Source: Amoebophrya sp. A120
Lineage: Eukaryota; Protista; Dinoflagellata
Direction: 5' to 3'
Assembly (NCBI GenBank): GCA_905178155.1
Contig: CAJINV010000005.1
Span: 6,249,207 to 6,313,206, forward strand
DNA: 64,000 nucleotides
Positions 22,401 to 51,356 of the stretch are shown one piece after another. A program made the position numbers and the translations under genes. A model generated the notes under the pieces. That model saw only the letters and a program-made list of their open reading frames with translations, had not been told where the DNA came from and searched no databases. Numbering within the stretch: position 1 is the first letter of the stretch; each line of letters starts with the position of its first letter.

Positions 22401-25400
22401 CTAGATGCCCAACAGCAAATTGTGGTAATCCAGCATTTCCTGATCCTCCTCGTTGTTCTCGTTTTGCGGTTTATTCGCGTTGCTGTTCTCCCCCACCGCA
22501 GCTCCATTCGCAGTGTTATTTGTATTGCCGTTTGTCGCATCACCTCCCTGATTTGCCATGCCAGGCTGCTGCCCAGCACCACCTGCATTGTTGTTCCCCG
22601 CAGCACCAGCGAGCAACGCCTTCTCCTCTAATTGCTGCAACTTTTGATTCTGCACTTGCTGCTGAAAGCCCGCAAGCAGGTTTTGCTGGTGCCCAGAAGA
22701 GGCAGCTGCACCTGCAGCTCCCTGCTGCATTTGTAGTCCTCCTGGTCCTGTTCCAAAGCCGCCAGCAGGAGCGCCTAAAGGATTGTTGTTCATCTGATTG
22801 CTCGGCATTTCAAACGCCTGCTGTGTCATCACGACATCTCCAACTGTGTTTTGCTGGATTTGGTTTTGGTTCTGCATCTGCTGTGGTCCTCCCTGCACCA
22901 TCCCCATTCCGTAAACCGCACTACTCGCACTCGCCCCGATGTTATGAAGGTGCACAACTCCCCCTCGTCCCCCTCATTTGTATTGCATGAACAGCAATAC
23001 AAACACCAGCGCAGCACGTGGAGCCTGTTTGGGCTTCCGCCGGATGAATCTGTCATGCAAAGAGTGCTACAGGGAAGCACTTGGCTTTCGGCTTTTGCAT
23101 GACAAGTGAGGGGGAAGGGCGGGAGTTGTGCACTCTCATAGATATTCGTCGGCAGTAGCATCTGATTCGCTTGCCGATTCGTCGTGGACCCACTTCCGTC
23201 ATTCTCCGTATTAACGCCGGTAGCGGCCGTGTTGAAATTCCCCGTCTGATTTGTCGTTTTCCCGAGCCCACCCACATCCACGCCCATGAGCAACGCCGCG
23301 GCGTTCCGCTTCAACGTTTCCGTGTTGTGCTTCGCGACGCGGTGCGCTGGGTTTCGCGGATCAAACTTCTCCGCGGACGTTGGGGTCGTTAACCCCCCGG
23401 CGCCCGGATTGCTCCGTGTGCTCATATCACCTCCTGTCGTCCCTAAAGGCGCGTTTGGATTGATATTCCTCACCGCCCGCGACTGCAGATGGCCGGCGAA
23501 AGTGGCACTCACGTCGGCGCTACTACTCCCGGGAGTGATGGCTCCGCCCAGTTTCTGCACCTTGTCGCCGACGAGCACACTGCCCATGTTACTCGCCGTT
23601 TGGAGGTTGATTAACGCCTGGGTTACCAAAGCGGTTGCCTCTGCTTTCCTTGTCGTTTCGGTGTTCTTCCCCTCCAGCATGTCGAACCCGACAGGGAGAT
23701 TTAACTGGTCGTGCTTGTGGTTCACGTTGGAAGCAGTGTGTGCGTCTCTTGGCGAGATCTTCTTCCCACCTTGCCCCCCTGGCAGGTGCGTGCCGAAGCC
23801 CAAAGTTGTACTTGTCGGAGTTTGCAATGAATTGCTGTTATTCGTATTGTTGTTCCCCATAAGGGGGAGTGGCAATGCGCGGGAGTTTTGGCTTCTCGTG
23901 CTGCCAAAACCAGGTGGTCCTGCTCCGCCGACGTTGGTAGGCGTTTGGTTTCTTCCAGTGCCTATTGGCAAAGGTAGGACGGACGGAGCAGCTTGGGCTG
24001 AAGCTCCCGTTGGCCCGAGTGTAGGGGAAAGCGTAGAAGATCCACCAACCGGGAATGTGCTGAAGTCCTTCGATCCCTTCGGACCTAATTTGCTCAGTTG
24101 CTGCGCACCCTTGACGCCCTTCGCTGCGAGCCTCGCAGCCATGGAAGGGGAGCCGATGGTGAGGTTGCCGCTACCATCAATCCGGTTCACGACCGGAATG
24201 AAATTTGGATTGAGACTGGAGGAAGAGACGGCCGGTGGGGAAATGACCGGAGGGGGAGGGAGAGGAAGTTGTGGCGATTTTGGTGGCGGGGGGAGGAGAG
24301 AAGTTGTACTATTACCTGACACGTCGGGCGGATTTATCTGCAACAGGTTCGGCACAACTGGTGGTGGTTGATTGTTCACTGCTGGATTGTTGTTTATTGT
24401 CGTGCTAGAGCTAGTTTTGTCGCTGGCTAGCATGATCTTCTTCCACGGCGCATCTTCCTCGACCGCTTGCTTTTCGATGTTCCAAGGTGCCTCTTCTGCG
24501 ACTTTTCGCCTTTTCCTTTTCTCGCCTTTTCGCTTCTTGCCCGCTTGCGCTTTCATCACGGCCTGGAATGAGGTTTTATTCATGATGGCATGATCATGTG
24601 TAGCAAGAGGAAGAGGAAGACACAATTTTTGCATGACAAATCCAAATTCGGATTTGGAGGTCACTTTCAGCGGATAATTTCAGCACCATTCCGAAGCCTA
24701 TTTCGCACAAACGCTAAATGGCAAGAAGTGGAAACAACTACTTACATAATTCTATTCAAATCTATACCTCTCTCTCCCCCTGGTAATCTCGGACTTGAAA
24801 CAGCATCTCCTCCTTTTTCAGTTCCAAAAGCCGTTGGTCCAGTTTTTTTTTCCGATCCTCCAGCTCTTTCACTTTTTTGAACCCGTTCTTGAACGCCGCT
24901 CGTTGCTCTTCCCGCATACCGAGCGTGGAAACCCCGCCGTATTCCTCCGCGATAGTTTCCTCGACTTCTACCTCCTGAAACTGCGGCTTCACGTAGAGCG
25001 TCGATTGCTCCTTGGCTTTTTTCTCCCGATCTTCCTTTCGGATCAGGTCTAGGTGTATCAAATGCAAAAATGTCTGGGTCTGGAAGGATGCAAGGTTTGT
25101 CATCCACATTTTGCATGACTCCTGATGTCTGTGATGCATGCCCTAGCATCACAGATTTTGTGAGGGCTTCCTGATGCCTCTATCGCATGAGAAATGCCGT
25201 GTCGCCCTGGCAAAAACTGGACCGCTTTTGCTGTTCATGCAATACAGATTCTTGTAGAATAAGAATTCAGACGCAGCATCACAAGTTGCATCCTTCCAGA
25301 TCCAGAGATATTTGCAATGCATAAGGTGCATATCAGACACGTGCTCCTCGTGATTCTGCTCTTTCGAATTCGTCGCCACGATGGGTTGCTGATAAGATTT

Positions 25401-27077
25401 TTTGACGTTCTTTTATTGTTGTAAACGATACATGTATTGCGAAGAGTCGCAAGACAATATAGTTCTGTGATGCATAATTTCAGCGCACGATATGTTGTTC
25501 TATCTGTCAGTACAATCTATACCTCGTAAAGCGTCCTGGGGTCCACTAAAGGGTTCCCGGCGTCCACTATCGCCGCAAAGCTCGGGCGCAATTCCAAGTT
25601 CGTGTGCTGCACGTAGCACCCGAAAAATTCATTCGCGACGGTTTGCAAATCCTGTTCCTCCTGGTATTGGATTACCAAATACGCTTCCGGCTCCCCCTTA
25701 TCCGGGATGGCGCAGTCGAAAGAAGTTGTTCTTGTCGCGTCGTTGTGGTCCGGTGGATTTGGCTGCTGATACTTGTTCTTCGTGGATGAAGTCGTTGCTG
25801 TTGTCCCTGGCGGTGTAGAAGTTATCAGATGAATTTTCGCCGATTCAACGTCGAACCCGAAGGCTTTGAAATATTTCATCCAGGCCGACCCGGGGAACAA
25901 GTCGTATTTCTTGCGTTTTTTGCTCTTTTCCGCGATTTTGTCCGGAATGAACCACCTCCGGGGCCAGGGACCGAGGCGGAGGGCGATTTTTTCCGCCTTG
26001 GACAGCTCGCGGAGACCGGAGACGACCTGTGGGGATTTTGTTTGCGATAGTTGTACAACATGTACAACGGCGGTCTAGTTCTAGAAGAGCGCCTTGTATA
26101 ATGCAAAGAACTGAATACAACTTCTTCTACCCTGGTACTCGTTGAAGATTCATTTCGCCATGCAAGAAGATCAGCTTCATGAATATATCCCGTGCTAAGT
26201 AAGTACTTACCGCTCGTCTCCTCCTGTTGATCTCCTTTTCCGACAGTGTATCCCGGATTTGCGCTACCCGCAACGTGATGATTTTCTTCTCTTCCTTTTC
26301 CTCGGGATTGTCTTTATCATCGGCACTTTCCCCCACTGCCGCTGCACTTTGCTCTTTTGATATTCTCTGGTTATTTACCAAATTTATCAACTGCCCGTCA
26401 CTCGCCGCCCCCTCGATGCTGATTAGATCGAATATCCTCTCCAGCCCGATCGCGTCTTGCAACGCCGATTCCTCGTGTGCGAACAGCACTTTTTTCTCTT
26501 CCAACCGCTTCAAATTTTCTTCGTTTCCGAGAAAATTTATCGACTCCGCCCAGCTGGTCGCTTGGTCGAGGTCGGAGGCGTCGAGATGGGTGGGCGGGAC
26601 CAGCTGTGATAGTTAGTGATCATCGGTTTTATTATGCAAGACAACATTCCGCATGTAGCTGCGCTTGCGCATGATCCAAAAGGAGATGTAATGCAGATCG
26701 AACATTCCGACCCGTAGGTACTGAAACTGGTTGCGGCTCGATGCGGGTTCTTTCAATAACAATTGCAATTTGTATATTACCTTCGTCCTCCACACCATGG
26801 GCCTTAAAATTTTTGGCATGCTGTTTACATCGGTATTCTCTGCGTTTTTCGTGAGCCATCTTGGCTCCGTCGAACTACCGGATGCTGCGGACGTCCCGGC
26901 CAGTGGGCTAGTCTTGGGCGAAGACTGCGGAACTGCAGAGGACCCAGTGGTCTTTGGCGAAGACATCGGGACCGTGGGAAGAAGTGCAGGTGCTGCACCA
27001 CCTTTGGGACTTGTTGTCGCAGGTGCCGCAGCAGCAGTCGCTGTTGAATCGATTTCCATTGGGACGGGGTCGGACAT
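22401..27077 (-). CDS. Large hypothetical protein with a low-complexity C-terminus; weak resemblance to AKAP17A/XE7-type splicing factors
   Basis: ATG at 27077. GT-AG introns 26604-26780 (CTAAC branch-like), 26075-26210, 25389-25522 and 24563-24767, plus introners at 25056 and 22943, give one open frame ending NLLLGI*. Confidence 0.7.
22943..23140. mobile_element. Introner family I (TIR TATGARRGTGCACAACTCCC)
   Basis: DR gatgt/gatat; single copy in the window. Confidence 0.85.
25056..25323. mobile_element. Introner family D1
   Basis: DR aggtg/aggtg. Confidence 0.9.
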
Positions 27078-28286
27078 TTTCCCGGACTTTTTAGTTGTGG
27101 GAAAATGAGAAAAACGTTGAGGTTAGCCCCTCGGCCTTGCTGTCCAGCTTACTCCTGAAGATTTTTCAGTGGCGTCGGCAAGATCGGCAAATCACTCACA
27201 GCACCACCACGACGACCTCCTCGATGCGGCCTGTCTGTGCCTGCGAATTAATTGCAGTCTAGTACCAAGACTGGAAATACTTAAACAAAATCCCTGTGGT
27301 TTCGTAATGCAGGTGGTGTTAAGAAAAATTCAAATCTCGGGTCGTCTATTGCATGATCAAGCCTTCTGGAGGATCTTGAACTTCTACAAGGGCCGTGAGT
27401 CGTGCCTAGGTAGACAAAACAAGTTGTTGGCTAGTAGCGAAGTCCGCTTTGAAAGCCGAAGCTGTCAGATAGAAGAACGAAGGCCCTCTTCCTTTTGCTT
27501 CTGGAGTATATCAGGAGGTACAGATTTCTATGTCGCTAGAAAAAAGTAAGTAAGGTAGACAACAAACTAGGGCTAGAAGTACAGGTCGCTTCATGTAGCT
27601 TTGAAAATGCGTTGTGTGTTCACGTACAGACAGACCTACCTAATTTCTTCTTGTCGTCGATGAAACTACTGACTGTCTTTTTTTGAAGAGTTGCGGGCAT
27701 ATGATTATCTTAATACCGGGATCTTGTTCAAGTGCAACCATGCGAACCACATCTTCTTCACCGGCACGGATCGATTTTTGAATCGTACTCAACATGATTT
27801 TTCAAAACGTAGAGAACAATGAAGAGCAACAGCTAGGAGTGAGCTGGGAAGTGAATTTGGAAAATTTTTTGTATCTTCGCTTGTTTGTCTTCTGGTAAAC
27901 AATTGCTTCGATCTGCTCGTCCGGTCGTGCTGACGCAAGCTGCAGTCTATCTGCAATTATGGCAAAAGAAAATTTTCTTGTCTCTGGTCTGTGTTCTCGA
28001 GTGCTGTCGCTTTTCTTATAGAAAATTTCATTAATTGTAGCATCTAGATCTACTTTGCCTTCCTCTTGCTGAGAGGTCGAGAGATTTTCAAAAGAAAGCT
28101 CAGTGTCCGGTCTCTACGTGGTCTTTAGATTTTCTTTACTTGAGCATGTTGTTTTGCACGCTTTCTGAGGCTACAAAGGATCCGTAGTTATAATTGGGAA
28201 CTTTAGCTTATCTCGCCTCTACTTTTTTTTCCGAATCATTAACAGCAAAATTCCTTCGTATTTCGACATAGACGTCATCAGAAGAT

Positions 28287-29936
28287 TCATACAAAGTTGT
28301 ATTCGACACGACTCCTGGCCGAATCGTGACGGTATAATTCTCCTGGCGGTTCTGCTTCTCCGCGAGAGGCGATGAATAAACTACGCGAGCTAATGCTTTT
28401 CGCAAAAAGATCCTTTCTTCTTTTTATTCGACCTCTACGAAAATGAAAAGGAGCGATGATGCTATTTGAATCGCTAGATTTGCGTTTGATGTCAAGTGGT
28501 TCCTGTTCCTGGTGTTTAGTTTTCGTAGCGCGAGTTGCGTCACAACTAGTTGTAAGCTTACTAGCATCTGCAGTGCTCTTTGATACCATTACGAGAGAGC
28601 TATCAGTACTACAACTACTAGGTTCATGCACCCCACCATAATTCCTGCTCTGTCGCCCCGATTCGTCTGCTTCTGCTTCATCAGATTCAGATGCTGCTTC
28701 ATCGTCTTCATCTCCAGCCAACAGGAACCGCGAAGCTAACACTACTTCCTGATCCACTGAAGCGTGCTCCGACCCAAAACCGCTCAGCGTCACCCGCCAA
28801 TCATCGATATCCCAACACTGGTAGGAACAACACACCTGCCGACTATCGTGGTGAAAACTTCTTGGCCCAAGAGAAAGGGAAGTTTGTGTTGCACTTGCAG
28901 CTACTGCATGCACATGCACTTGCACCTACCTACTAAAGGAGGAGGAGTTATTTCTTTATACAGCGCATGTTTCGGGGGGCGACCCAAGGCATGCATCCAT
29001 ACAGAATTCGTGTACTGTCTACGCTCTGTGCAACACAAACTTCACCCGATGAACTTCTTGACCCAAACTCTTTCACTTCCCTAGCTCCGCACCTGTTTGT
29101 ACGCCGGATCGCCGCCGAACGTCGGCCCCCGATGTGCCGACCAGGGGAAAGAAATCAAATCCTTGAATTTGCAGTTGTGCTTGTACTTCGTCCGAAACCA
29201 CAGCAACCCGAACAGACCGCACCACCCCTGACAGTGCGCTACCTCGTCGCCGAACTTCGTGAGTTATGAACTGCAAAAATGTCTGGGTCGGGAAGATTCC
29301 GAGATTTGTCATGCAGTTTGTCCAAGTTCCACCACGTCTGGAGTGCAGGGCCTAGCATCACAGGCTCTGCAGCCCCTTGGTGATGCCTATACTGCATGAA
29401 AAATGCCCTCTCAGCATGGCCAGAAGTGGGCACCTTAATCTTTTGCACGTTATGCATCACAGATCTTTGTAGGATCCGAAACACACATCACAAGTTCGCA
29501 TCCTTCCAGACCCAGACATTTTTGCATTTGATATCAGTTTGCAGTTCACAAACTCCCCCTGACTCGTGCACAGGGCCTTTTTCGCCGCCCGCATCACCGT
29601 GGCGTACAGACGTGGGACGCCGATAATCGATCCGAGGTTCTTGAAACTGGTTTTGATGGGTTTATGATAGTTATGTTGGCCGTGCTTGCGTTGTAGTTGA
29701 GGCAGGAGCGCCGGCGGGTGCACTTGTGTAGTTCTTGTTGGTGACGTACTACTAGATGATGCGCCGCTCGTGGCGAGAAAAGAAGTTGCGGATGAGCTTC
29801 CGCACTGTGACCGCCCGGCCAAGGGAGCTAGTGGTCGATTGAGAAAATCCTGTAGTGCAGAAAGAACATCATGGCGGCTTAGAAGAGTCGTGCTGGTCAG
29901 AGAAGCACTACCGCCGGATAAGGATGCTGTCATCAT
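28287..29936 (-). CDS. Hypothetical protein; ends uncertain
   Basis: Frame restored across 29265-29533 (FVNCKL|TKFGDEVAHCQGWCG); probable GT intron about 28930-29090. Confidence 0.5.
29265..29533. mobile_element. Introner family D1
   Basis: DR tgagt/tcagt. Confidence 0.88.
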
Positions 29937-30241
29937 CTTTGCGATCCGTAATACCCTTCACGACCGGTTTCTCGTTCCCTGATCCGAAGATGCAGTTGTT
30001 CTAATTAGTCTCTGGAGAGGTCCTCGTAAAAATAGCACGAAGTTGAATGAGTGACAGTGGCTTTCAAGCATGCCGCGGCGACGAAATCTGTCCGAATCAG
30101 TATGACGAACGGATGATCGCGCTGTCTCGCGCTCCACTTTTTGTGCGGTCGAGGTCGGCTCCGACAACTCACTCTCATCTCATCCTCATCGGTCGTGTTG
30201 TTACGAAAACCGATAATCGAAAACAAGCTGTGACAACAGTG

Positions 30242-33200
30242 CTATACTGAGCAAGAAGTGCCTGATGTGGACGGATCGTTATTGTCATCATCATGTTGTG
30301 GCTCTGGGTCGATGTCGACCTCTACCTCGTTCGCTTCACAGCTCGCATCGAAAGTTGAAGAAGATGTTGACGTAGTAGAGGCGGCACTGTATTTTCCTTC
30401 ATCGCCGCGTTCGTCTTCATCTTCCGCACAGGCATTTTCTTGTTCCACCAAAGAAAGCGCACTCGTATCAATACTTTCCTCCAGCTCCAGCCTCATCTCG
30501 AGCAGTTTCAAAATTTTCGCAGCGCAATTCTTCCGGATTCTTTTCGCCTTTCGCAAATCTTCCTCCGAAAACACACGGCTTGATGATGATGTGGCGGTTG
30601 CGCCGGTGAAGATTTTTATTCCCATCCCCTGGTCATCAGCACTGCTGGTGTGTTCATCTGTTGCTCCCGTGTAGATGAAGTTTCGTTCAAAATGGTTCGC
30701 TAGCCAGAGGTACAAATCACAAATTTTGTGACAGCTCTCCAGTCGCAGAACGTCCTGGATAGAAAAATGGCGGTTTTTTCCACTGGAGGACATGCTCAAC
30801 ATCTCCGCTTCGTTTTCCACTTGATGTAGTGCTGTCCCCTGCTGCTCTCCTGCATCAGTTCTGCTAACTTCGGCCCCGTTGCTCGTCCCATAGTTCATCT
30901 GCAGTGGCGTTTCCGGCCGGTGTCCATCGGCGTGATCAGCTTTGAGGATCGTGCTGCAGCTTTCTTGTTCTAGAATGGCAGCACCACCGGCAGTCGTAGC
31001 TTCAGAAGAAGGAGTTGTGTTGCTATCATCGTCCACCCCAGCATGATCATCAAGATGCAGCCTTACATTGTCCAAACTAATCCTCCTCCGGTTGCTCAAA
31101 ACGTATCCTGTGCAAAAGTATCGCATTCGTAGTAATTGCAATCATGCATTACAAGTTTTTTTCTAAAGGTGAATCCGCATTACAGATTTTATTTCTCATG
31201 CTGAGGAAATTTGTAATGCATTTATACGAGTTGTACGATAGATACTTTTGCAATGCATAAAACGTACTCCCGGACGAAGGTCTTCAAAGCGCTCAAAACC
31301 TCAATCTCCTCCGGCTCCACATTCGGGGCGGAGGCGAAGAGAAACAACTCCCGGATGGTTAGCAAGTGGATCTTCATGCCGGTGGAGGTGCAGGAGTCAG
31401 AGTCTGGGGTGTTTGTCATGTTGTTTCCAGATGAGTTTGAATAAAACGCGTCCAGGTCGGTGAGGCGGCAAATCTGTATCATTTGCTGCAAGTTTTGCAG
31501 CTGGAAGTAATCATCCGTGGTTGCGTGGTGTTGGAACATTTGTAGCAAGTCGGAGAATTTGAGCTCTTTGTCGTGGTGACCAGTGACCGAGATCTCTCGT
31601 TCGAATTTTTCCAGCATCTGCACCTCCATCGGGATCGTGAAGACAGGGAGAGCTGCACCAGAAGTTTCCTGGTTTTGCTCTGCAACTTGGTCTTCTTGCC
31701 CTTGGCCTTGCGTAACTACGGCAGCCGACTTCGTCCTTGTGTCGCTACTTGAAGAAGAAGTCGCGAGACATTTCCGCAGGTACCGTAAATCCTCTGGCAC
31801 AAACGCGCCCACCCGGCCGCTGCTGGTTGATGCAGCAAGAACACTTTGATGCGCTCCTCCCGCTTCACATGTAGTTGCGGCGCGCGGTAACGACACCCCT
31901 CTCCCTATCCTATGTAAAAACGTCCCCACACCATAGTTGTATTGCAAATCTGCATGCTGAAGTTGTTTCTCATGCGGAGCCCCATGAGAAGCATTTTCCA
32001 GTCGTGTTTTGCAATTTGTCATGCTCCAATCAGCATGATATACTAGGTCTGTGATGCTGCTGAGCTAGCTCAAACAGCACTACGCTACGAGTCCAAATCT
32101 GTCATGCAAGACAGCCAAAACATGTGGATTTGTCTAGCCAATCCGCCATCTTGACTATGGGGTGGGGACGTTTTTACATAGGATACTCCCCGCCCTCCCC
32201 GCGATCTGCCTAACCTCGTCCTCCGACAGCTTTCTCCTCTTATTCCCGTCGAATTTTGACGTTGCAGAGAACAAAATCCGTTTGATCCTCAGATTCACCC
32301 CGAGCCCGATACAATCAGTTGCGATGAGGACAGGAATTTTCATGTTGTGTTGTTCTTGCGATGATGTAGCAGCACGAGCAGCAGAACGACAACCAGGTTT
32401 CGGTTCTTGTGTCGCATTTTTACCTAGGACTTTCGCTGTGTAAAACTCCGCACAAATTTCGTTGAATTTCTGCACCTGCTTCTGACGCACTTCGGGCGGA
32501 AGCGTCCCGTACAGAACGATAGGGTTGTACTTCGTCGTTTCTTCTTGTAGCTGTTGGCCTTGATCCTCAAGAAGGCCCGCACCGCAGCTACTCGCTTTAC
32601 TAGAAGAAGAGCAAGAATTCTGTTCCAATTCGTGTTTCAATCTGAACACTTCCTTCCTCGAAAAGGCGATGATGCAGTCCCCGGGAAGAATCTCCCTGCA
32701 AGGCTTTCCCTCCACGTGTAATGGGCCGTTTAACCGCTCGTACTTGCGGGATTGGATGTAGTTTTGATCCATGGGTGGAATAAATGGCAAGCATGTTGTT
32801 GACAAACTGTAGTCCCCTGCTCGTCGAACGAGCAACAGTTTTTCCATGATGTGATGCAGCAATCTCTTCTCCACTTTCTCGTCCGGACTCAGAAAGCCGC
32901 ACAGGTGGACTTTCTGTTGCAGGTTGGTCTGCATGTAGTTTGTCGACATTGATGTTCCAGCAGGAGCAAAAGAAACATCGGAGGCTGCGGCTCCAGAAGA
33001 AGTAGTTTTCGTGGTGAAACAGGTCATCAGGGCTTTGAGATACCCTGGGCCTCTCACGGGGTCGAAAAGTAGTTGAAATTCGTCGAGGATGATGTTGATG
33101 TTCATGATGCTGTGCTGTTTGCCTTTGTCATGCGAAACACCATCGGAAGTAGTAGAAGAAACAATCGTCTCGAAGAAACTGGGAAACATCTCCGTTGTGC

Positions 33201-36274: not shown

Positions 36275-36325
36275 CTGATTAAAGCTCGAGGTAAATGGTA
36301 AGGGGGAGAGCGCACTGGGAGAGAA

Positions 36326-37070
36326 TCCTGACTTTTGTGTCGTCCGCTACGCAGAGCTAGCGGACACAAAAGTTCCAAAATCCAAACTTTTGTGTCCGCT
36401 AGCTAGAGCTAGCGGACACAAAAATTCCAAAATTCAGACTTTTGTGTCCGCTACGTAGAGCTAGCGGACACAAAAATTCCAAAACTCAGACTTTTGTGTC
36501 CGCTACGTAGAGCTAGCGGACACAAAAGTTCCAACATTCTGACTTTTCGAGGTAGGGGAATCCGCGAATTTTCAAAATTTTATTTTTATTGCAACGAAAA
36601 TTCCAAAGTCCTGACTTTTGTGTCCGCTAGCTAGGGCTAGCGGACACAAAAGTTTCAAAGTCCCAACTTTTGTGTCCGCTAGCTAGAGCTAGCGGACACA
36701 AAAGCTCCAAAATCCCAACTTTTGTGTCCGCTAGCTAGAGCTAGCGGACACAAAAGCTACGAAATCCAGACTTTTGTGTCCGCTAGCTAGAGCTAGCGGA
36801 CACAAAAGTTCCAAGATCCCAACTTTTGTGTCCGCTAGCTAGGGCCAGCGGAGACAAAAGTTCCAACATTCTGACTTTTCGAGGTAGGGGAATCCGCGAA
36901 TTTTCAAAATTTTATTTCTATTGCAACGAAAATTCCAAAGTCCTGACTTTTGTGTCCGCTAGCTAGGGCTAGCGGACACAAAAGTTTCAAAATCCCAACT
37001 TTTGTGTCCGCTAGCTAGAGCTAGCGGACACAAAAGTCAGGACTTTGGAATTTTCGTTGCAATAAAAGTT
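36326..37070. repeat. Array of 11 palindromes (CTTTTGTGTCCGCTAGCTAGAGCTAGCGGACACAAAAG), 52-bp period
   Basis: Copies start at about 36332, 36387, 36439, 36491, 36615, 36667, 36719, 36771, 36823, 36947 and 36999; a duplicated AT-rich linker occurs twice. Confidence 0.92.
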
Positions 37071-38365
37071 CACTCTGCCCGAGCGGAGAGTGACGGCCAA
37101 GAGTGATGGCCAAGAGTGATGGCCAACTGTCCTGGCCATCACTCCTCCCGCCCGGAAAGTGATGGCCAAGAGTGATGGCCAGGAGTGATGGCCAAGTGCC
37201 CTGGCCATCACTCTTGGCCATCACTCTGCCCGAGCGGAGAGTGATGGCCAAGAGTGATGGCCAAGAGTGATGGCCAACTGTCCTGGCCATCACTCCTCCC
37301 GCCCGGAAAGTGATGGCCAAGAGTGATGGCCAGGAGTGATGGCCAAGTGCCCTGGCCATCACTCTTGGCCATCACTCTGCCCGAGCGGAGAGTGATGGCC
37401 AAGAGTGATGGCCAAGAGTGATGGCCAACTGTCCTGGCCATCACTCCTCCCGCCCGGAAAGTGATGGCCAAGAGTGATGGCCAGGAGTGATGGCCAAGTG
37501 CCCTGGCCATCACTCTTGGCCATCACTCTGCCCGAGCGGAGAGTGATGGCCAAGAGTGATGGCCAAGAGTGATGGCCAACTGTCCTGGCCATCACTCCTC
37601 CCGCCCGGAAAGTGATGGCCAAGAGTGATGGCCAGGAGTGATGGCCAAGTGCCCTGGCCATCACTCTTGGCCATCACTCTGCCCGAGCGGAGAGTGATGG
37701 CCAAGAGTGATGGCCAAGAGTGATGGCCAACTGTCCTGGCCATCACTCCTCCCGCCCGGAGAGTGATGGCCAAGAGTGATGGCCAAGTGCCCTGGCCATC
37801 ACTCTTGGCCATCACTCTGCCCGAGCGGAGAGTGATGGCCAAGAGTGATGGCCAAGAGTGATGGCCAACTGTCCTGGCCATCACTCCTCCCGCCCGGAAA
37901 GTGATGGCCAAGAGTGATGGCCAGGAGTGATGGCCAAGTGCCCTGGCCATCACTCTTGGCCATCACTCTGCCCGAGCGGAGAGTGATGGCCAAGAGTGAT
38001 GGCCAAGAGTGATGGCCAACTGTCCTGGCCATCACTCCTCCCGCCCGGAAAGTGATGGCCAAGAGTGATGGCCAGGAGTGATGGCCAAGTGCCCTGGCCG
38101 TCACTCTTGGCCATCACTCTGCCCGAGCGGAGAGTGATGGCCAAGAGTGATGGCCAAGAGTGATGGCCAACTGTCCTGGCCATCACTCCTCCCGCCCGGA
38201 AAGTGGTGGCCAAGAGTGATGGCCAAGTGCCCTGGCCATCACTCTTGGCCACCACTCTGCCCGAGCGGAGAGTGATGGCCAAGAGTGATGGCCAAGTGTC
38301 CTGGCCATCACTCTTCCCGCCCGGAAAGTGATGGCCAGGAGTGATGGCCAAGTGCCCTGGCCATC
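37071..38365. repeat. Tandem satellite, about 9 units of 151 bp (two of 138 bp), built from 13-bp GAGTGATGGCCAA subunits in both orientations
   Basis: Units start at 37071, 37222, 37373, 37524, 37675, 37813, 37964, 38115 and 38253. Confidence 0.95.
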
Positions 38366-38562
38366 GACGATTTGGCAGCAGGCTATGCTGACGATTTGGA
38401 AGCCCAGAACGCGGCTTTTGCTCCATGTGTCCGGTGGAGATGAACGTGGAGGTCTGTTACTTCTCAACGTGGCGGACTGCTCACACGGACACGACGGAGG
38501 CACAAAAACACAAACTAGTTTGCATTTCCATTTTCTTTTTCAACACCCCAAAAACAAGTACA

Positions 38563-41500: not shown

Positions 41501-42810
41501 CGCAGAGCACGTGGAGCAGGGAAAACCCGTCCATGTTGGGAGTATGGAAAGGAAAACCGTGTAAGGGTTTGTGGTTTGATGTTGTGCAAAATAAACGCTC
41601 AGCTCTTGTTTCATCTGCGGTCGACATTTAAGCATTTGGGTTGTTGTACCTCAACATCATGCAGCCTATCATGTCGAAGGAACAGGAAGAGCTGGTCGTG
41701 AAGCTGCAAGAGTATCAAAACATTAACCCGAATGATTTTCGCTACCAAATTACTTAACGCGGCGGCGTTCGGCTCACCAGCGTTGCCTACGTGGTCCCAA
41801 TCCTGCTGCGTATTCCCGGTATTCAAATTGCACCAACAATCCTCCTGCAGCAACAGCTTCAGGATGTGCTCGTGCCCGTGGTACGCCGCGGAATGTAAGC
41901 ACGTCCACCGGTCTATGCAAGAAAAAAACTAAAACTGTGTAAGTGTAACTCTGTAATGCAGAACATGCAACAGAGCGACATCTGTCATGCCAGACAGCCA
42001 TGATGTCCTCTTTTCATGTGTGTTTTCCCTTACAAGCCACGCATGGCAGGCTTTCTCTGTCATGTAGAGCAAATTTGTCATGCTGTCAGCCAAAGAAACT
42101 TTAACTTACACTATTAACACAGTTTCCTTCTTGCATACGGTCCTTCTGCAGGTAAAGGAATAAATTCGCTTTCCTCTCGCACGCTAGTAACCTCGTTAGG
42201 CGGATGTTGCCCTGTTTGCACGCGACGCGGAGGGCGGTGCGCCCGTCGATCTGCTCCATGGGGTAGTATGCCTGTAATAGGGTTGTTGTCGATTTGCTCC
42301 ATAGGGTTGTTGTTTTTTCGAGCGATGTAGGATACGGTGTTGTGCGGTTCGGAGCGCACAAACTGTATTGCGCTCAGCGCAGCAACGATCTTGAGTTATG
42401 AATTATCATGCGACCACAACATGAAACAAACACTTGTAACAAACTACCTGAAAATCCGCCCCCTCTTCCAGATTCTGTGCCACCAAGACATGTTGGTTGT
42501 GTTGCACGGCCTTGAAAAGCAGCAAGGCTTTTGACGCCGCGCCACCATTTCTCGTGTAATCGTGTACTCTACCGTACGTTGTACTGTCGTTTAAGGGTTG
42601 GTTGCCACCGGCGTACTTGTTATACCCATTCCCGTTATACGCGTTTGGGTTCGGGTAATTTGGGTAATCTTTCCTCCCCGATGAGCCAGACGCCGCAGAT
42701 CTGCTGTTTGGGTTGAAAAAGTAGTCGCCGGCTGCGTCCGGGGAAACGGTTGGAGGATCCGGGATGTCAAACTTTTGTGGCGTTTGCGACGCCACGTTTA
42801 GGACGACCAT
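38563..42810 (-). CDS. Ankyrin-repeat protein (6 introners plus other introns)
   Basis: Repeats DGRTALRVACKQG, DGFSLLHVLC, ENWTPLHLCAARG, NGLLPIHLAAFGGH, WTPLFFAVWNNH, GLLHLAVVRGD, GWSPLTLAI. Confidence 0.88.
39446..39703. mobile_element. Introner family D2
   Basis: DR degenerate ggcgg/atcgg. Confidence 0.82.
39953..40092. mobile_element. Introner family A
   Basis: DR ttgga/ttgga. Confidence 0.88.
40168..40488. mobile_element. Introner family F
   Basis: DR tcgat/tcgat. Confidence 0.9.
41006..41156. mobile_element. Introner family A
   Basis: DR cctag/cctaa. Confidence 0.88.
41231..41384. mobile_element. Introner family A (reverse orientation)
   Basis: DR agagg/agaga. Confidence 0.88.
41914..42137. 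mobile_element. Introner family B
   Basis: DR cggtc/cggtc; close to 3146-3357. Confidence 0.9.
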
Positions 42811-43459
42811 GGTTTAAGATTTTTGACTGCTGGCATGAAACAGGTTCAGGTATTGATATACTTAGAAACCGGAATGATGTCGTGTAGTTGTTGTACTTGT
42901 ACGTGTCATGGCAATAAATTCCATTAGCCTAAAAGCACGTCTCTCCGCTCAACATCCTCGTCTCTCAGAGAATAAATCGCTCGGGCTCATGTACTACTAC
43001 CCATAGAGCCTTTGTAGACCGGTGCTCCTCCTGCAGTACACCTGCTCCTCACATACAACCTTCAAACAAAATGAAAGACCGAAAGCACCTCTTAGAAAAG
43101 TTCCTGCTCTTTTGCTCGAACCTTCTCCGTCTCTGAAATTGCACCAGCACGCCCTGGGAAGGAAGTAGGAACAACACGAAAAAAACAAGTAGAGCTGAAA
43201 ACAGCTGCAACAAAAAAAAGCTTGCCGAAGAGGTTGACAATGTGAGGTTAGTGTAGATGCAGGAGTTCGAATAAGACTGTGCGCAGTCACGTCGTTGTTT
43301 TCGTTTGTAGTTTTATTTCGCTGGAGAGAAGAATAGCAGCTTGTTGTCGCTGTAGTTGTTTCATTTCCCAGTGGAGCTTATTTTACTTCGTCCTTTGGTA
43401 CCACTCGTTATCTCCTTCTTCCGAAAAGGACGACGAGAGAAATACCCCTTTGTTCAACA

Positions 43460-46400
43460 TCACTTCAAACCACAGTACAGCATGGTGACGAGAACACTTG
43501 TGTCGTCTCCTCCGTCGGAGAGTTGGTAGGCAATATCGGCTATGGATTGCAAAAATGTCTGGGTCTGGAAGAATGCAGGAGTTTGTGATGCAGATTTTGC
43601 ATGACCCATGAGGTCTGTGATGCATGCCCTAGCATCAGAGATTTTGCGAGGGCTTTCTGATGCTCACACCGCATCAGAAATGCCCTCTCCGCGTAGCACA
43701 AATTACACCTCTTTTGCTGTTCATGCAATACAGATTCTATGTAGAGTCCAAATGTAGCATCACAAGTTGCATCCTTCCAGACCCAGACATCTTTGCATTT
43801 GATATCGGCCAGATCCTTCGCTATGTCGGACAGGACGGTGGATTGCTTCATAAACAGTGCCTATCGCAAGAAAAAGCTGTTTCACTGTCGTGAACTTGTG
43901 ATGCATAGAGTGGAGCACAGAACTATTTGTCTTGCTACACCTGCACGACCTTGACTCTTTAGGGGTGTTTTCCCTTTGAAAGCGTGCATGGCAAATTTTC
44001 TGTCACATGTGTAACAAGCTTGTGATGCAGATCTTGCAAAACCATCACAGTGAAGCAGTTTTTTCGTGGGATAGTGCCTCCTCTTCCGCCGGGCTCAGAC
44101 GATTGCGCTCCCGAGGGGAAAGCCTGGCGTGGTCGTAAAGAAACTGCTGACAGGCCGCAAGTTGGGACTGGTACTTCAGCGCAATGCGCGGAATGTCCGC
44201 ATTCTTGAGAAAATCGAAGGCGCCGTCCGTCCCCTGCATTATCAAGTGCAAACATGTCTGGGTCTGGAAAGTTGCAGGATTTGTCATGCACATTTTACAT
44301 GACCCATGATGCCTGTGATCATGTGTGCCCTTGCATGACAGATTTTCTGAGGTCCTCTTGATGCCTGTCCCGCATGAGATGAAATGACCTCTCCACGTAG
44401 CAAAAACCGGGCCGCTCCTCGTGCTGCTCAAGCAATACAGATTCTTTCAGCATCCAACAGCAGCATGACAAGTTGCATCCTTCCAGACGCAGACATATTT
44501 CCAATGCATATGCACCAGGAGTCCGCAACACTGCTCCACCTTTTCCAAGTCACACTTCTCGAGCACCGACGCCTCGTGGAACAGGTCGATGCACCGAGTT
44601 TCCGGCTCGTAAATGAGCGCGCCGTTGACGCGCGGCATACATTTCGCGTCGTAGTCGCCAATCGACCGGGTGGGCTGCAGTCCGCCCAGCCGCCCGTTGT
44701 GTGGCGGCGCCGTGATGTCCGTGATCCCAGCCCGCGCCAGCCGCGCGCGCTCGGCCTCGCACCGGCAGGACTGCTCCACGGACAAGTGATTCAGGCGCCC
44801 GAACTGGAGGTGCTTCTTCCGGTCCCCGTCCCCCCGCGCTCGCTTGGACGAGGTGCAGTCACTCAGGGGCACGTACTTGGCGTCGCAGTCCCCGACCTGG
44901 GCGCAATACAGGTAGCGGCCCCAGCATAGCACCGCGTTCATGCAGGTGCCGGACGAGATTTTTTGTCCCCACAGCGCGAATTCGCAGTGCTCGGCCGCTT
45001 TCTTCATGGCCGCGGCCGGCGAAGTGCCCCGTTGTCGAAAGTCGTTCAAGACCAGGTCCGGGAATATCAACTGCAAAAATGTCTGGGTCTGGAAGATCGC
45101 CAGGTTTGTCATGCGTATTTTGAATGACCCATGATGTCTGTGATGCATGCTCTAGCATCACAGATTTTTCGAGGGTTTTGTGATGCCTCTACCGCATGAG
45201 AAATGTCCTCTCCACGTAGCACAAACCGGAGTGCTCTTGCTGGTCATGCAATACAAAATTTTTTAGAATCCAGACACAGCATCACAAGTTCTGAATCTTC
45301 CAGACCCAGACATATTTGCAATTCACAGGGAAAAATTCCGCCACCGTGGTCGCGGCCTGCGCGCCGTCGTGGCCGTCACAGACGTATGCATTGCAAAAGC
45401 ATCGTACTAGTATAAACCGCAATACAATAAATTTCCTTAGCATTAGAAATGGAATTTGTAATGCGGATTTGCCTCAAGAAAAAGATTTGTAATGCATGAC
45501 TGCGATAATTACTACGAGTACGATACTTTTGCACAGGATAAGACACCCGAGATGAACCAATCGACCTTTTTTTCCTCTCCTACCGTGCCGACAAATGAGA
45601 AAATACGGTCTTCGTTTCCCCGGTGCGCCGGCCACACCACGTTGATCTTGCCCTCTTCTTTCTCCCCGGCCGCGGCTTCGTCGTCCTCGTTGGCACCGCT
45701 GCTTGACTTTTTCTTCTTTCCTTCGTCATCAGATTTTTCGCCATCGTCGCTGTGCTTATCCTCGTTCTCTGCAACCTCGTAATATGCATTGCAAAATGAA
45801 GTATCGTAGTACTCGTATAGATGCATTACCTCAGCATGAGAGTTGAAATTTGTAATGCGGATTTACCTTACGAAAAAGACTTGTAATGCATGACCGCAAT
45901 ACGAGTACGATACTTTTGCACAGGATACCTCCTCGTCCCGCTCAGGCGACAGATCGCGCCGCTTCTGGGTGTGTCAACTGTAAAAATGTCTGGGTCTGGA
46001 AGAATTCATGTTTGTCATGCTTGTCTGGCATGACTCCTAAATCTGTCACGCACGTTACCCAAGAGCTCCGCTTTTCTGTGATGCAGAAGCGCAGTTTGTC
46101 ATGCGGAATAGGCAACACCTAGGAGCTCAGAAACTTGTCATGCTGAGCCAGCATTTGTAGCCTCATCGTGAGACGCCGCCCAGCATCACAAGTTTCCAGA
46201 CCCAGACATTTTTACATTTGATAGGGTGAACTTGCGGCTCAAGTACATAAAATTCATATTCTCGCTCTCGCGCGCCAGGTTTCTTGCGCGCAGTCCCGCG
46301 AACTTCTTTTCCCGCGCCGTCTTCTACGAACTGCAAATATGTCTGGGTCTGGAAACTTGTGATGCAAGAAAGGGAAGAGTGAACATTCTGTAATGCGCTG

Positions 46401-47885
46401 CCCAGCATGACAAGGTTTTCCGTGGTTCTGAGTTGCGTACTCCGCATGAGAAACTGCATTCTTGCATGACAGGCAAGACGAGGAGCTCTTTGCGGTGACG
46501 CAACACACACTTCAGAGTCATGCCAGACTAGCATGACAAATCTCGCAACGTCCCAGACCCAGACATATTTGCAATTCATATCTTCGGCAGTGTCACGTTC
46601 CCGGCTAGATTCTATGGATTGCAAATATGTCTGGGTCTGAAAGAGTCGGGGTTTGTCATGCACATTTTGCATGACCCATGAGGTCAGTGATGCAGGTCCT
46701 AGCATCACAGATTTTTTGAGAGCTTCTTGATGCTTATCACGCATGAGAAATGCCCTCTCCGCATGCCAAGAACTGGACTCCTCTTGCTGCTCATGCAACA
46801 CAGATATTTTTAGAATCCGCAGACAGCATTACAAGTTCTACTCTTCCAGACCCAGACATTTTTGCATTTGATAGATTCTCAGTCTCGTCCACTTCGATGC
46901 TCCGAAACTGTTTGATATCTACCCGGCGCTCCCGCTTTTTGTTTTTCAACACGACCGGCTCCCTATTTTTTTCGACCCCCGGCGGTTTGTCCGCGTTGGC
47001 CAGGTCCAGTGCCTTAATATTTAGTTGTACCCCCGGCGGTTTTATCCTGTGCAAAAGTATCGTACAAATGCAATTCTTGCATTACAAATGTTTTTCTTAA
47101 TGTAAATCAGCATGACAAATTTTATTTCTCATGCTGAGGGAATTTGTCATGCATTTATACGAGTACGATACTTTTGCAGTTCATAGGTTTGTCCGCGTTG
47201 GCCAGGTCCAGTGCCTTCAGTATGGATGTGTCAGGATCGAAATCGACAAAATCGAAAAATTTGTAATGCATATAAATGTAGGGTAAGTAAGGCCTGTGTT
47301 GGGGAGCAGGCAAATGCGACCGACTGCAAGCCTGTTTAGGGGAAGGAGATGCGCTGCCAAAGTGGCACGACAGGAGCAGTCTTCTTTACGTACCCAAACA
47401 GCATGACAGACTGGATTTATTTGGTGCAGCTCCCGAAATTTGTCATGCGCCACTTGGAAACTGAGGCTTAAAGTGGCATCGACTTTATGCATCGCAAATT
47501 GCTTCGATTTTGTTGATTTCGATCCTGACACTCCCATATTCAGCGCTTCGGCCGTCAACGGGAGCTGCTGCCCGGGGGAGGTAACGGGCTTGGGTTCGTC
47601 TTCGTCTTGGTCTTGGTCTGCCCGCTCTGGCTCCTTGGGCTTGATCTCGTTCGCCGCGTCGCTCTTGTGTGCCTCGCTCAAACGCTTGTTTGCAGCTGCA
47701 AACGCGTCCCGGTCGAAGGGGGCGATCGGCGGCTTAGCGAGGACCACCGGTGGTTTAGCGACCGTCTTCGCGCTCGGCTTAGTAATCGTCAGGCCGAACG
47801 GGTTACTGCTCATGTTCTGACTTGCGGGACCTTGCGGCAGAGGCCGCAGCCGCTTGGCAGCGGGGGTGGGAGTGTCTTCGGGCAT
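43460..47885 (-). CDS. PP2C/PPM-family protein phosphatase (11 introners)
   Basis: The spliced product has RGNEDR, GV|CDGHDG, SGTC, CAQVGDC, GRLGGLQPTRSIGD, V|QGTDGAFD and GGDDTSVLV; TGA at 43460-43462. Confidence 0.9.
43541..43804. mobile_element. Introner family D1
   Basis: DR tcggc/tcggc. Confidence 0.9.
43862..44073. mobile_element. Introner family B-like (B2)
   Basis: DR gtgcc/gtgcc. Confidence 0.85.
44240..44510. mobile_element. Introner family D1
   Basis: DR tgcat/tgcac. Confidence 0.88.
45065..45327. mobile_element. Introner family D1 (right end CA)
   Basis: DR gggaa/gggaa. Confidence 0.9.
45385..45540. mobile_element. Introner family A (reverse orientation)
   Basis: DR agacg/agaca; splits the PP2C GV|CDGH motif. 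Confidence 0.9.
45780..45927. mobile_element. Introner family A
   Basis: DR cctcg/cctcc with 3 extra nt (taa) at the left end. Confidence 0.82.
45972..46223. mobile_element. Introner family D2 (left end TG)
   Basis: DR gggtg/gggtg. Confidence 0.9.
46325..46580. mobile_element. Introner family D2
   Basis: DR tcttc/tcttc. Confidence 0.9.
46613..46873. mobile_element. Introner family D1
   Basis: DR gattc/gattc. Confidence 0.9.
47043..47185. mobile_element. Introner family A
   Basis: DR ggttt/ggttt. Confidence 0.9.
47221..47538. mobile_element. Introner family H
   Basis: DR ttcag/ttcag. Confidence 0.9.
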
Positions 47886-48139
47886 TGTTCTACTTGCTCA
47901 CAACTCTTCTAGCCTTTTCTACTGTGATTTGATTTACCGAGACGGATGATATCTCAATTAGAAGTCTTTCAGAAATCTACTTGCTTTCTCCTACTTCTTA
48001 ATCTTTCAGATTCAGATTCAGATTTGTCGGCGCACGTGACGCAGTCACGTAAAAGAATGTTTCGCTTGGCTTGGCTGCGAGGTGGCGTTCCAGAACTTTA
48101 GGAGAAGCTATTCATTGGCTAAAACTTGACCACGCGTAG

Positions 48140-48219
48140 TTACACTGCGCATCCACCGTTTTTACAGTGCGCATCCATCGTTACAGCGCGCATCCACCGT
48201 TACAGTGCGCATCCACCGT
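48140..48219. repeat. Minisatellite, 4 x about 19 bp (TTACAGTGCGCATCCACCG)
   Basis: Four adjacent near-identical copies upstream of the PP2C gene. Confidence 0.85.
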
Positions 48220-49155
48220 CGAAACGGACACAAGTAGTGGAGTAGATCTTCGTACAAAACAAGTTCGCTGCCAGAAGTAGTGGAGATCTTCGTAGTTTTA
48301 TCACCAAAAGCTCCACCTGCCACGAGGACGAGGACCAGAGCTGCATCACAACAAAACAGAGCTTCGCGATGAATATGGTGACATTAACGCTAGTGTCCTC
48401 GAGCTTAGACTCACGGAGCTGGAGCAGGAGTTCGAACAAAACTGGCCATAGTGAGAATGAATATCGTCGTTGTTTTCTTCACGTGCGGTCCTTCACGTGC
48501 GTTGTTCCTTCGTTTTATATAATCCTTCGCGTTGGAGGTTTAGAGAATCTTGTCGCTAGAGTTTCATTTTGATTTTCCGGGAGGTGTCTGTTCTACCACT
48601 AGTGGAGCTTTTACTCCGTCGTTTGTTAGTACCACTCGTGGTGAGGTCATTTTCGGTGGACGTCGCTGATGGTTGAGATGGATCATCGCACTTGTTTTAG
48701 GTCTACTACTAATCGTAGCCTATCATCGTAGCTTGGATGTTACAGAACCAAATAGAAGTGTGGAAGGCTTATCGCGTTTCGCTTTTTCTTTTTCAAATTG
48801 GAAGGATGAATATAGTACTTTGCTCGACATCAAGAACAGAGATGAGTTTGAAGACATACCTCGTGACAGTTAGCTTTTCGCTTCACAATTTCGTGGTGCG
48901 CTTTCTGAGAATTTTAGCTCATCAACTACTCGTGGATAGGTAACCAACGTCAAGAAATCATTTAAGCGCGGCTGATATTTGTCTTTGATTACAACCAAAA
49001 GTAATGTTCAGATTTTTCATACTTACTGTAGAAAGGCTTGTTTTCCTTTTCCGGTTCTTCACAGCCGGAAAAAAGGCCCGATTCTATTACCACACCACTC
49101 ATAGCTGCGAATACAGTGCTCGCACCACTCTAGGTTGTACTTCTAACCACCACTC

Positions 49156-51356
49156 TTACACCCCATACGTCGTGTCAATCTTCCGGATCCCGGCGACTGA
49201 GTCATCCCTTAACCCGTAAATCGTCTCAAACCGCTTTCTCTGCCTTTCCTCCTCCAATTTTTGCCTCTTTTCCAACATCTCATCCGTCACCGGCTCCTGC
49301 ATTTCCCCGCCGAGTAAACTGCCACTGCTGCTATTCCCCAACACCCCCTCATCGCTCGCCTCGATGGTTGACGGGGAAAAAACGTGCTCCAACTCGAGCA
49401 CGATCGCGTCCAACTGGTGCAAACTCGGCCCGGAAATTTTTTTCATCACCTCTTTGTACCGCCATCCTCCGTCCTTCTCATTCGCGTCGTAACAGGGATT
49501 GTGCTCGAGGTAGAGGCATTTCAGCTTCAAATTCCACAAGCCCGCTATTCTTTCATCATTTGCCGCAAGTTCGATTTGCTTCTGCTTGGTTGTTTGGTAG
49601 GGCGTTGTTATGGTTGGTGTTGCTATTGCTGGTTGTAGCTGTACTCCTCCGCTGTCGTCCGGTGATTTTCGCTTCTTCAACAATTCCCCGGACGGCGAAA
49701 CTACGGTCGCCGCGGTTAATGCCCTTGCATTTTCATCTCCTTCACTATCCTGCTTGTAACTATAGTGGTAATCGATGTCGATCCCGCACCCGCTCATCCA
49801 CAATTCCTCTAACTCTGACAACCGGAACTGCTTCGGTATTGAATTTATCCTTTTATTCTGGCTAATGTCCAGCGTTTTTAAGTTCGGCAAATAGTGGTCA
49901 GAGAACAAAAACGGACTTCCGCTTTCCGCTCCGTCTGGTGTGGAGATGGGGAAGGGTGGGAGGTTGTTTTCCGATAAATACAGCTGCTCCAATTTCGGCC
50001 CGCAGAGGTTCTCGAAGAACGACGCCTCCCAGTGTTCTAACCGGTTGCACTGGATCGAGCAGATTTCCAAATCGGGGAGAAAGTGCTCGTGTTCATCCTT
50101 CATATTATCATCAGTCATGCCGTTCACCTTCATGGTGGTGATTTTGTTTTTCCCCAACCACAGCTCCTTCAATTTCCGGTATCAAAAGAAAAAGTCCCCC
50201 CTTCCCATATCAAAACGGAACGCAGATTTGTTGTCACAAATCAGCTTTGTCATGCTACACGGGAAAAGATGCGGACTGTAGTGCTGGGTGGCGTGGGGAA
50301 GCCTTGCATCTTCCGCATGATAGGAGGCAGCTGAGAGTGGGAAACAGCATCACAAATTGCCTGCAAACGAGGCCACGACTGCGGCTCTTGGCCTTCTAGC
50401 ATGACAAGTCGATTTGTGACCTCAAATACAGCATCACAAATTTCGTTTTCGATATGGGGAGCGAGGATTTTTCCTCTCGATATCCGGAGGTGGATCACGT
50501 CCTGCGGGATTTCGCGTAGCCGGTTGGCGCCGAGCTCGAGGATTTCCAGATTCTTGAAACACGATAACGCGTTCTCCGGAACCTCTTCTAATTTGTTGGA
50601 CGGGAGGTACCTGATGGGTTGTAGCAAATGAGGGTATAGGATTTAGGAAACAGTTCTGATAGTAGTTTGTCATGCTCAGTAAAAATGCAATCCTGATTTG
50701 TCATGCGCACCACAGCACATCAGAAAGAAAACAAATCTTAATCTATACAGTTTCTTCAGCGTATCCGCAAACACCGGTTTTTTGTCAATCCGGTCCGGGT
50801 CCCCCGCGTCCAAATACCCCAGATATCGGATCCGGTTGAAGCTCAAGTCTAGATGCTCCAGTTTCGGACAAAACTCCAAATTCTCGATGCGTTTTATCGC
50901 GTTTTGATACAACTCCAAATGCCGTAAGTTGCACAAAGTCTCCAACCCCTCGATTTTCTCCACGTTGTTCGCGATGAGTTTCAAAACTTGCAGATTACTC
51001 CCGATGATGTCGAGATTGACCATCTGCTGGATCCTTGCTGTGGACAGAACCAGTTCCGGTTGGTTCGGATCTAAAGGGATGTCCTTCCCCAGAATCGTGA
51101 ACTTCGGCGCGGACTCGTCCTGACATTCCGTGTTCACACCAGCCGCCGGGTTGATCTTAATCGCGTTTTTGGATTCCGTTTTGAGGTTCACGGATTTGTT
51201 GTTGTTTTTCGGAGAGGGAGAATCGGGTATGATGTCTTCGCACGCGAAAAGATCATCGTCGTCGTCTTTGTTTGCGGCGAAAAGCCCGGACCGGTCGACT
51301 TTCACAGACCCAAAGGTCTGGATCATCGGGTTGGGCTTCGGCGGGTTGGCGGCCAT
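49156..51356 (-). CDS. SDS22: Sds22-like leucine-rich-repeat protein (PP1 regulatory subunit 7)
   Basis: Sds22-type LRRs (LRHLELYQNAIKRIENL, LEHLDLSFNRI, LEILELGANRLREI, LKELWLGKNKI) and LRR cap LYLEHNP...YK...LHQLDA; GT-AG intron 50611-50748 plus an introner. Confidence 0.85.
50180..50482. mobile_element. Introner family F
   Basis: DR tccgg/tccgg. Confidence 0.9.

Follow-up and report, generated by a model that had tools for sequence, protein, structure and literature searches.

Amoebophrya sp. A120 is a parasite that kills algae, and this report concerns a short DNA motif, TGTNATGC, that its introners share with ordinary GT-AG introns in a 64-kb stretch of contig CAJINV010000005.1 (hereafter the window). 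The motif is enriched in canonical introns as well as in introners, although it is not universal among them. The introners of A120 are already known from two papers (PMC7789003; PMC12130899). In the text of the first of these, Farhat et al. 2021, which treats the same organism, introners are described with inverted repeats that start with TAT, direct repeats at the junctions and non-canonical ends; inverted or direct repeats are reported in 15% of the canonical introns, and U1 small nuclear RNA (snRNA) was not detected. The paper calls it an open question how Amoebophrya can excise tens of thousands of introns whose ends are arbitrary, apparently with no U1, and it puts the share of introns at positions common to A120 and A25 at about 19%. 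As far as its body text goes, that paper deals with the terminal repeats alone and contains no internal motif common to the families, no spacing of 31-33 bp and no motif in canonical introns devoid of terminal inverted repeats (TIRs), and its supplement text gave no match to TCATGC or GTAT. The direct repeats are put at 3-5 nt in the same text, compared with a uniform 5-bp target-site duplication (TSD) here. A search of literature text found no description of the motif in introns or canonical introns; the figures of PMC7789003 and Roy et al. 2023 (Curr Biol) were outside its scope and may bear on novelty.

Other systems offer partial parallels. The fungal introner-like elements (PMC3609843) likewise provide a model in which mobile introns fade to ordinary ones, but these are spliceosomal introns whose sequence and length degenerate, whereas the A120 elements are mostly non-canonical and keep an internal word near consensus when the rest is unrecognisable. 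The nonconventional introns of euglenids (PMC12501133, PMC11282704) and the non-canonical introns of Fritillaria (PMC11282704, PMC13326754) are also transposon-like and are spliced without GT-AG beside conventional ones. Their signals are described as lying at the ends and depending on the strand (CDG/CHG pairing, altered U2AF and snRNA), in contrast to the A120 motif, which is internal, orientation-independent and common to canonical introns.

A short site common to all sampled introner families and to ordinary introns is a concrete handle on an apparently U1-less intron removal. It is relevant, too, to the question of whether ordinary introns are old transposons, since ancestry could be followed by it once all other similarity has gone. 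The subterminal transposase-binding repeats of DNA transposons and miniature inverted-repeat transposable elements are short, occur in both orientations and are common to non-autonomous families. The A120 sites are likewise short and repeated in both orientations, but they are spread through the element, are apparently constrained after insertion and are found also in single-copy introns with no TIR; no cognate transposase was identified for them.

The motif in the window and in the introners

The motif or its complement is present 194 times in the window, against 9.27 matches expected; 180 of the matches fall within TIR elements or homologous sequence and 14 outside. Its extended consensus is AAAYYTGTVATGC, with variants that include TCTCATGC and TGTNTTGC. 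All predicted genes of the window are on the minus strand, and three of them agree at 100% with annotated proteins of Amoebophrya sp. A120. The window gave no match in Rfam, and viral contigs gave no introner match.

A wider sample was drawn from at least 131 stretches matched by a terminal-repeat word of the window, 129 of which were used (679 kb merged, JACKZZ01). Each locus was selected for containing an introner and none overlaps the window; the loci are tied to A120 by shared introner families (best identities 71-97%) and by a motif density of 3.0/kb. Loci and window together yielded 635 TIR elements, with one false call in a resampled window. Among the 531 strong TIR elements, which include nine families of five or more, 97.6% contain the exact motif, at 3.1 per element, and most introners carry 4-6 sites in addition to their TIRs. 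The elements begin TATC or TATG. Insertion was in both orientations among 469 exon-context elements, 336 of which have a perfect 5-bp TSD (any other length, 53 or fewer), and the spliced unit is usually the element plus 5 nt. The 480 strong-TIR elements examined for context were placed in predicted coding sequence in 470 cases, in intergenic DNA in 8 and in introns in 2, although a bonus for TIR elements in the gene finder may inflate the coding count.

Three observations concern elements at the edge of this library. A further TIR family, with a TATT start, lies outside the TAT[C/G] set and is represented near 5666 in locus L069 and near 763 in L066 (merged coordinates; 91% alike over 233 nt). 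Near 1808 in locus L018, a predicted intron bounded by strong GT and AG sites can be recognised as a family-1 introner without a paired terminal repeat and is a candidate intermediate. In the window itself, the TIR introner at 2000-2178 has variant sites alone, without the exact motif.

Five GT-AG introns with the motif

The sequence-only reading that led to this analysis had placed the motif at seven coordinates, five in inferred introns that lack TIRs and two (5878 and 18227) in probable introns. Every coordinate is correct (24631 on the minus strand; 25466, 26687, 50668, 50699, 5878 and 18227 on the plus strand), and six of them fall in the five introns listed here, of which the first four are the in-range introns and 18170-18344 is the fifth.

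24563..24767, minus strand: GT-AG intron of 205 nt, GTATAGATT...CCAG, no TIR; sense site at 24631-24638, 19.2 bits
25389..25522, minus strand: GT-AG intron of 134 nt, GTATAGATT...TCAG, no TIR; exact antisense site at 25466 and a second, variant site at 25456
26604..26780, minus strand: GT-AG intron of 177 nt, GTAATA...ACAG, no TIR; exact site in a weak context at 26687 (6.5 bits) and a variant at 26643 (11.6 bits)
50611..50748, minus strand: GT-AG intron of 138 nt, GTATAGATT...TCAG, in a leucine-rich-repeat gene (presumably SDS22-like); antisense sites at 50668 and 50699, 31 bp apart, 16.9 bits each
18170..18344, minus strand: GT-AG intron of 175 nt, GTAAGA...ACAG, no TIR; a single site, antisense, at 18227 (15.5 bits)

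The remaining coordinate, 5878, belongs instead to a degenerate-TIR introner at 5831-5998, the ends of which, TATGGCATGCAC and TATGGCTTGCTC, are inverted repeats; its overall fold is no better than that of shuffles (z -0.61), though the arms pair. The introns and positions named earlier are partly confirmed. Only motif-positive introns had been named; among the 24 predicted window introns only 5 have the exact motif, and 4 of the window matches are exonic (22313, 32850, 33126 and 33463).

All five are real GT-AG introns that are removed from mRNA, as indicated by annotation, RNA or homology. Mapping of the proteins P0005, P0001 and P0006 to the window left gaps at each of the five, in every case bounded by GT..AG. 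In the probable-RNA runs X1 and X4, contigs stop at 24561 and restart at 25523 with 349 nt in between, which equals 961-205-273-134 and fits removal of units of 205, 273 and 134 nt. The 661 nt between 20120 and 18170 are also accounted for when the 434-nt intron at 18627-19060 is included. This RNA support covers 7200-27199 and comes through contigs; for 50611-50748 the support is annotation and homology, as the junction between LKKL and YLPSNK is uninterrupted in the A25 ortholog and in a transcript-derived ortholog. The raw RNA run X8 contributed 87 reads on the stretch, all partial.

The five introns show little of an introner beyond the motif. No residual TIR was detected in any of them (shuffle p 0.27-0.90), and their starts read GTATAG or GTAA, not TAT[C/G]. 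Scored with hidden Markov models (HMMs) of the nine sampled families, they gave 12.3, 11.0, 9.6, 3.0 and 0 bits against a cut-off of 16.2, and none exceeded the 99th percentile of motif-implanted controls, though two ranked above all 19 of their own controls. A 5-bp TSD around TAT..ATA is absent from four, and 26604-26780 has only weak out-of-frame candidates. Depth in run X5 is 43-50 over four of the introns, as for unique DNA (95% likeness; 50611-50748 lies outside the coverage). Folding of the four in-range introns did not exceed that of shuffled sequence (z 0.12, -1.18, -0.41 and 0.01), and on this ground a hairpin role was rejected for them; the inverted GTATAG...CTATAC within 50611-50748 was not significant (p 0.27).

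Enrichment in predicted canonical introns

Introns were predicted with a custom gene finder in which motif windows were scored neutrally. On the three annotated window genes it placed 6 of 8 GT-AG introns exactly and chose the wrong acceptor for the other 2. It predicted 327 GT-AG introns, and 220 passed the flank filters (196 in the loci, 24 in the window). From the loci, 24 introns were removed because profiles, TIRs or BLAST pointed to an introner origin (16 of these were motif-bearing), which left 172 cleaned loci introns.

The exact motif is present in 19 of these 172, with 23 matches compared with 5.2 from shuffles (Poisson p 9e-9), so the excess over shuffled sequence on which the sequence-only reading had staked its claim is present in this independent sample. 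At least one site above 12 bits is present in 27 of the 172, against a mean of 5.0 and a maximum of 8 in length-matched intergenic pieces. By density, the exact motif reaches 0.74/kb in cleaned introns and 0.25 in intergenic DNA (p 9e-5), with 0.08/kb in exons, and sites above 12 bits reach 1.19/kb and 0.28/kb in cleaned introns and intergenic DNA, respectively (p 1e-9). Without an HMM-score filter, short non-coding gaps hold 1.59 sites/kb compared with 0.07-0.11 strong sites/kb within 300 nt of gene ends. The 65 high-confidence introns from loci and window behave alike, with a site above 8 bits in 26, above 12 bits in 14 and the exact motif in 12 (13 matches vs 2.1). Counted de novo, the 7-mers GTCATGC and TGTCATG are among the top words of introns and outside the top 22 of intergenic DNA. 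Separately, words of the GTAC/AGTAG type are strongly over-represented throughout non-coding DNA, in introns and intergenic sequence of window and loci alike.

Overall, about one sixth of predicted canonical introns have one site or two, in either orientation. Most have no strong site, which implies that the motif is no general requirement.

Orientation, position and spacing of the sites

Sites above 12 bits divide into 20 sense and 17 antisense, and the exact motif into 15 and 8 in the loci and 1 and 5 in the window. The sites are centre-biased but widely spread and keep no fixed distance to either splice site. An ordinary RNA splice signal would not be expected to show such strand symmetry, and together with the spread of distances and the restriction of sites to a minority of introns the symmetry speaks against a signal of the branch-point type. 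A reading as the GCAUG element of RBFOX-type proteins was dropped on the same symmetry and on the variants GCATCACA and GCATTACA, which lack GCAUG. Pairs in the same orientation are 31-33 bp apart in 7 of 23 cases, including 50668/50699, against 0.73 expected (0 of 20000 permutations), and this spacing recurs across introner families; it would correspond to three helical turns. Introns with a site have higher donor scores than those without (median 1.8 vs 1.0), which gives no sign that the sites compensate for weak donors.

Three of the named introns had been noted to begin G-TATAG, like a G followed by an introner terminus. The three starts do read GTATAGATT, and they are its only copies in the whole window; the loci have 3. 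GTATAG is the commonest predicted donor (17 of 220), and a site is present in 9 of the 16 cleaned GTATAG introns of 90-300 nt. Frequency differs by donor, with sites in 32 of 73 GTAT/GTAC introns and 7 of 37 GTAA/GTAG introns (p 0.011). The comparison with a terminus does not hold, however, as introner ends read TATC or TATG and those starting TATA number 0 of 104 in one set of ends and 12 of 635 among unconstrained ends. Introners that can be read as GT-AG are not over-represented (21 of 469, 4.5% vs 5.9% expected). Where these have a G+TAT donor it is GTATC or GTATG, never GTATA, and they show no extra decay of TIR (p 0.96) or profile (p 0.78). No TSD/ATA junction scar was found in motif-bearing canonical introns, with ATA at -7 in 0 of 56. 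These donors, the unchanged decay and the missing scar do not support direct conversion of a G plus terminus, and the proposal that canonical introns are aged introners that gained GT-AG in this way and then lost their TIRs fails in its simple form. Canonical introns may still have a remote origin in extinct introner families.

Decay of the sites compared with their surroundings

In simulation, introners lost a detectable TIR at ~0.3 substitutions/site and family homology at ~0.5. When both are lost, 14-31% of the surviving excess sites score 12 bits or more, compared with 64% of excess sites in the cleaned introns (~43 of 67). In present-day elements the proportion is 82% unmutated and 52% at 0.1 divergence. 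Sequence on one side of the sites resembles known introners at chance level (12.6 vs 12.4 of 20), and no hidden TAT..ATA unit with a perfect TSD was found in 38 site-bearing introns. Mismatch between TSDs, seen in 96 of 423 copies, served as a rough age clock for introners. In mismatched copies the motif cores have no added divergence (delta 0.002, p 0.40), in contrast to the other conserved columns, where it rises by 0.023 (p 0.007), and the two differ (p 0.012). The quality of the sites, their flanks, the missing TSD units and the constraint on the cores favour selection on the sites after insertion, plus a faint trace of possible introner ancestry.

Interpretation of the shared motif

The interpretation we lean towards, with slightly less than even confidence, is that the motif is a predicted binding site kept by selection, a DNA-level auxiliary intron mark common to introners and TIR-less GT-AG introns. 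It builds on the enrichment, symmetry, spacing and site quality observed here. The motif would mark a stretch as intronic in the DNA during transcription; a host protein that binds double-stranded DNA would act as a pair over three helical turns, and the bound pair may favour co-transcriptional intron recognition; the reported non-detection of U1 snRNA in A120 (PMC7789003) is in line with this. In introners the TIR hairpin would then fix the intron ends, and in canonical introns GT-AG would do so, with the DNA mark auxiliary and not required. Canonical introns could be either very old introners that kept the sites alone or older introns that gained sites. This retains much of a suggestion in the sequence-only reading, an intron-definition signal that outlives mobility, with which near-consensus sites, kept spacing and constraint after insertion agree; the signal is not general, however. 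A bolder form, which we regard as doubtful, is that A120 defines introns partly from DNA: a host protein on paired, orientation-independent sites spaced by three helical turns would pass the stretch to a U1-less spliceosome, introners would have spread through coding exons by means of arrays of this mark, and canonical introns would use the same mark.

Several observations weigh against a selected intron mark. The constraint on the sites might reflect something other than splicing, the introns of the loci were predicted ab initio, and a test that dispensed with gene models and took donor-like words as anchors did not reach significance (for GTATAG, 7 of 24 sense vs 1 of 15 antisense, p 0.12; for the other words, p 0.09-1.0). 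Of 196 cleaned introns, 140 lack any site above 8 bits (56 have one), and the RNA-supported intron at 26027-26210, in the same gene as three of the named introns, has no exact motif and is a counter-example. Faint likeness to introners beyond the sites is also detectable. Both flanks taken together score slightly above chance (20.5 vs 19.7 of 40, p 1e-4), though below introners mutated at 40% (23.1) and below a cross-family comparison (21.7); a paired profile test gave a mean of +1.6 bits (p 0.003), and in it 50611-50748 and 18170-18344 outscore all 19 of their own controls. On a log scale the contrast between cores and other columns has p 0.068.

That residual likeness is what would be expected if the sites were neutral relics, functionless now: the motif would be a transposase or mobility site, and canonical introns would be decayed introners of extinct or unsampled families, or older introns that hold introner debris. 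We consider this rather unlikely, although several observations are in its favour. Of the 35 predicted loci introns that had the motif before cleaning, 16 could be recognised as derived from introners (these were removed), HMM matches occur in 9 of 40 motif-bearing introns and 1 of 180 motif-less ones, two window introns contain nested introners, and the preference for GTAT/GTAC donors points the same way. With strong-TIR elements so largely in exon context, relics would be expected in introns rather than in intergenic DNA, and degeneration to ordinary introns has a precedent in the fungal elements (PMC3609843). The divergences do not agree, however. Site quality fits a divergence below 0.1, whereas site number, TIR loss and flanks need 0.3-0.5. 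The GT-AG introners have no added TIR decay and no GTATA start, the TSD/ATA scar is missing from motif-bearing canonical introns, four of the five named introns are on long contigs or bins of single-copy depth in run X5, and no two cleaned site-bearing introns with a GTA donor share a long match.

A selected site need not concern introns as such. A DNA-binding protein might use the sites in chromatin organisation, transcription elongation or element silencing, with introns simply the places where a transcribed gene can hold them; strand symmetry, the three-turn spacing, the lack of a positional tie to splice sites, the many canonical introns with no site and the stronger donors of site-bearing introns are all consistent with this. 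Such a role seems unlikely to us given the background density of sites close to gene starts and stops (within 300 nt), where one would expect those of transcription factors, and the near-constant presence of the exact motif in library elements, the checked copies of which are spliced out. We judge it very improbable that the pattern is an artefact, arising from post-hoc selection or from a gene prediction that pushed missed introners into GT-AG boundaries. The selective naming of motif-positive introns, the presence of some missed introners among the predicted loci introns and the null word-anchored test would fit it. Against it, the gene finder scored the motif neutrally, the enrichment persists after removal of HMM, TIR and BLAST positives and in the high-confidence subset (12 of 65), no hidden TSD-bounded elements appeared, and the five window introns have annotation, RNA or homology behind them.

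Other features of the window

Further introns and introners of the window are as follows.

26027..26210, minus strand: GT-AG intron of 184 nt, GTAAGT...ACAG; exact motif absent, highest matrix score 7.0; RNA-supported
5831..5998, minus strand: degenerate-TIR introner, TATGGC...GCCATA; sites at 5878 and 5930; not a TIR-less intron
25056..25323, minus strand: TIR introner amid two of the GT-AG introns; spliced unit of 273 nt, the element plus one 5-bp TSD
50180..50482, minus strand: TIR introner in the same gene as 50611-50748; spliced unit of 308 nt
18627..19060, minus strand: GT-AG intron of 434 nt; nested in it, close to the 3' end, is a TIR introner (18639-18945); two variant sites in the unique part, 16.2 and 9.3 bits
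15088..15478, minus strand: GT-AG intron of 391 nt; nested in it, 7 nt from the 3' end, is a TIR introner (15095-15305); unique part free of sites
136..268, minus strand: predicted GT-AG intron, donor position uncertain; exact site at 186; candidate

The introns at 18627-19060 and 15088-15478 belong to one gene; their nested introners end 12 and 7 nt from the AG, respectively, and each intron leaves as one unit in the annotated protein. The P0006 gene (13684-20425) encodes 1076 amino acids, has a precomputed Pfam assignment to PF04824, which we take to be of the Rad21/Rec8 type, and contains 14 introns, mostly introners. At 23037, within the introner 22943-23140, a 3-nt deletion is present in about half of the X5 contig depth. 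Between two genes, at 36342-38365, lie two adjoining motif-free tandem arrays, one with a 52-bp unit in a 332-bp higher order and one with a 13-bp unit in a 151-bp higher order.

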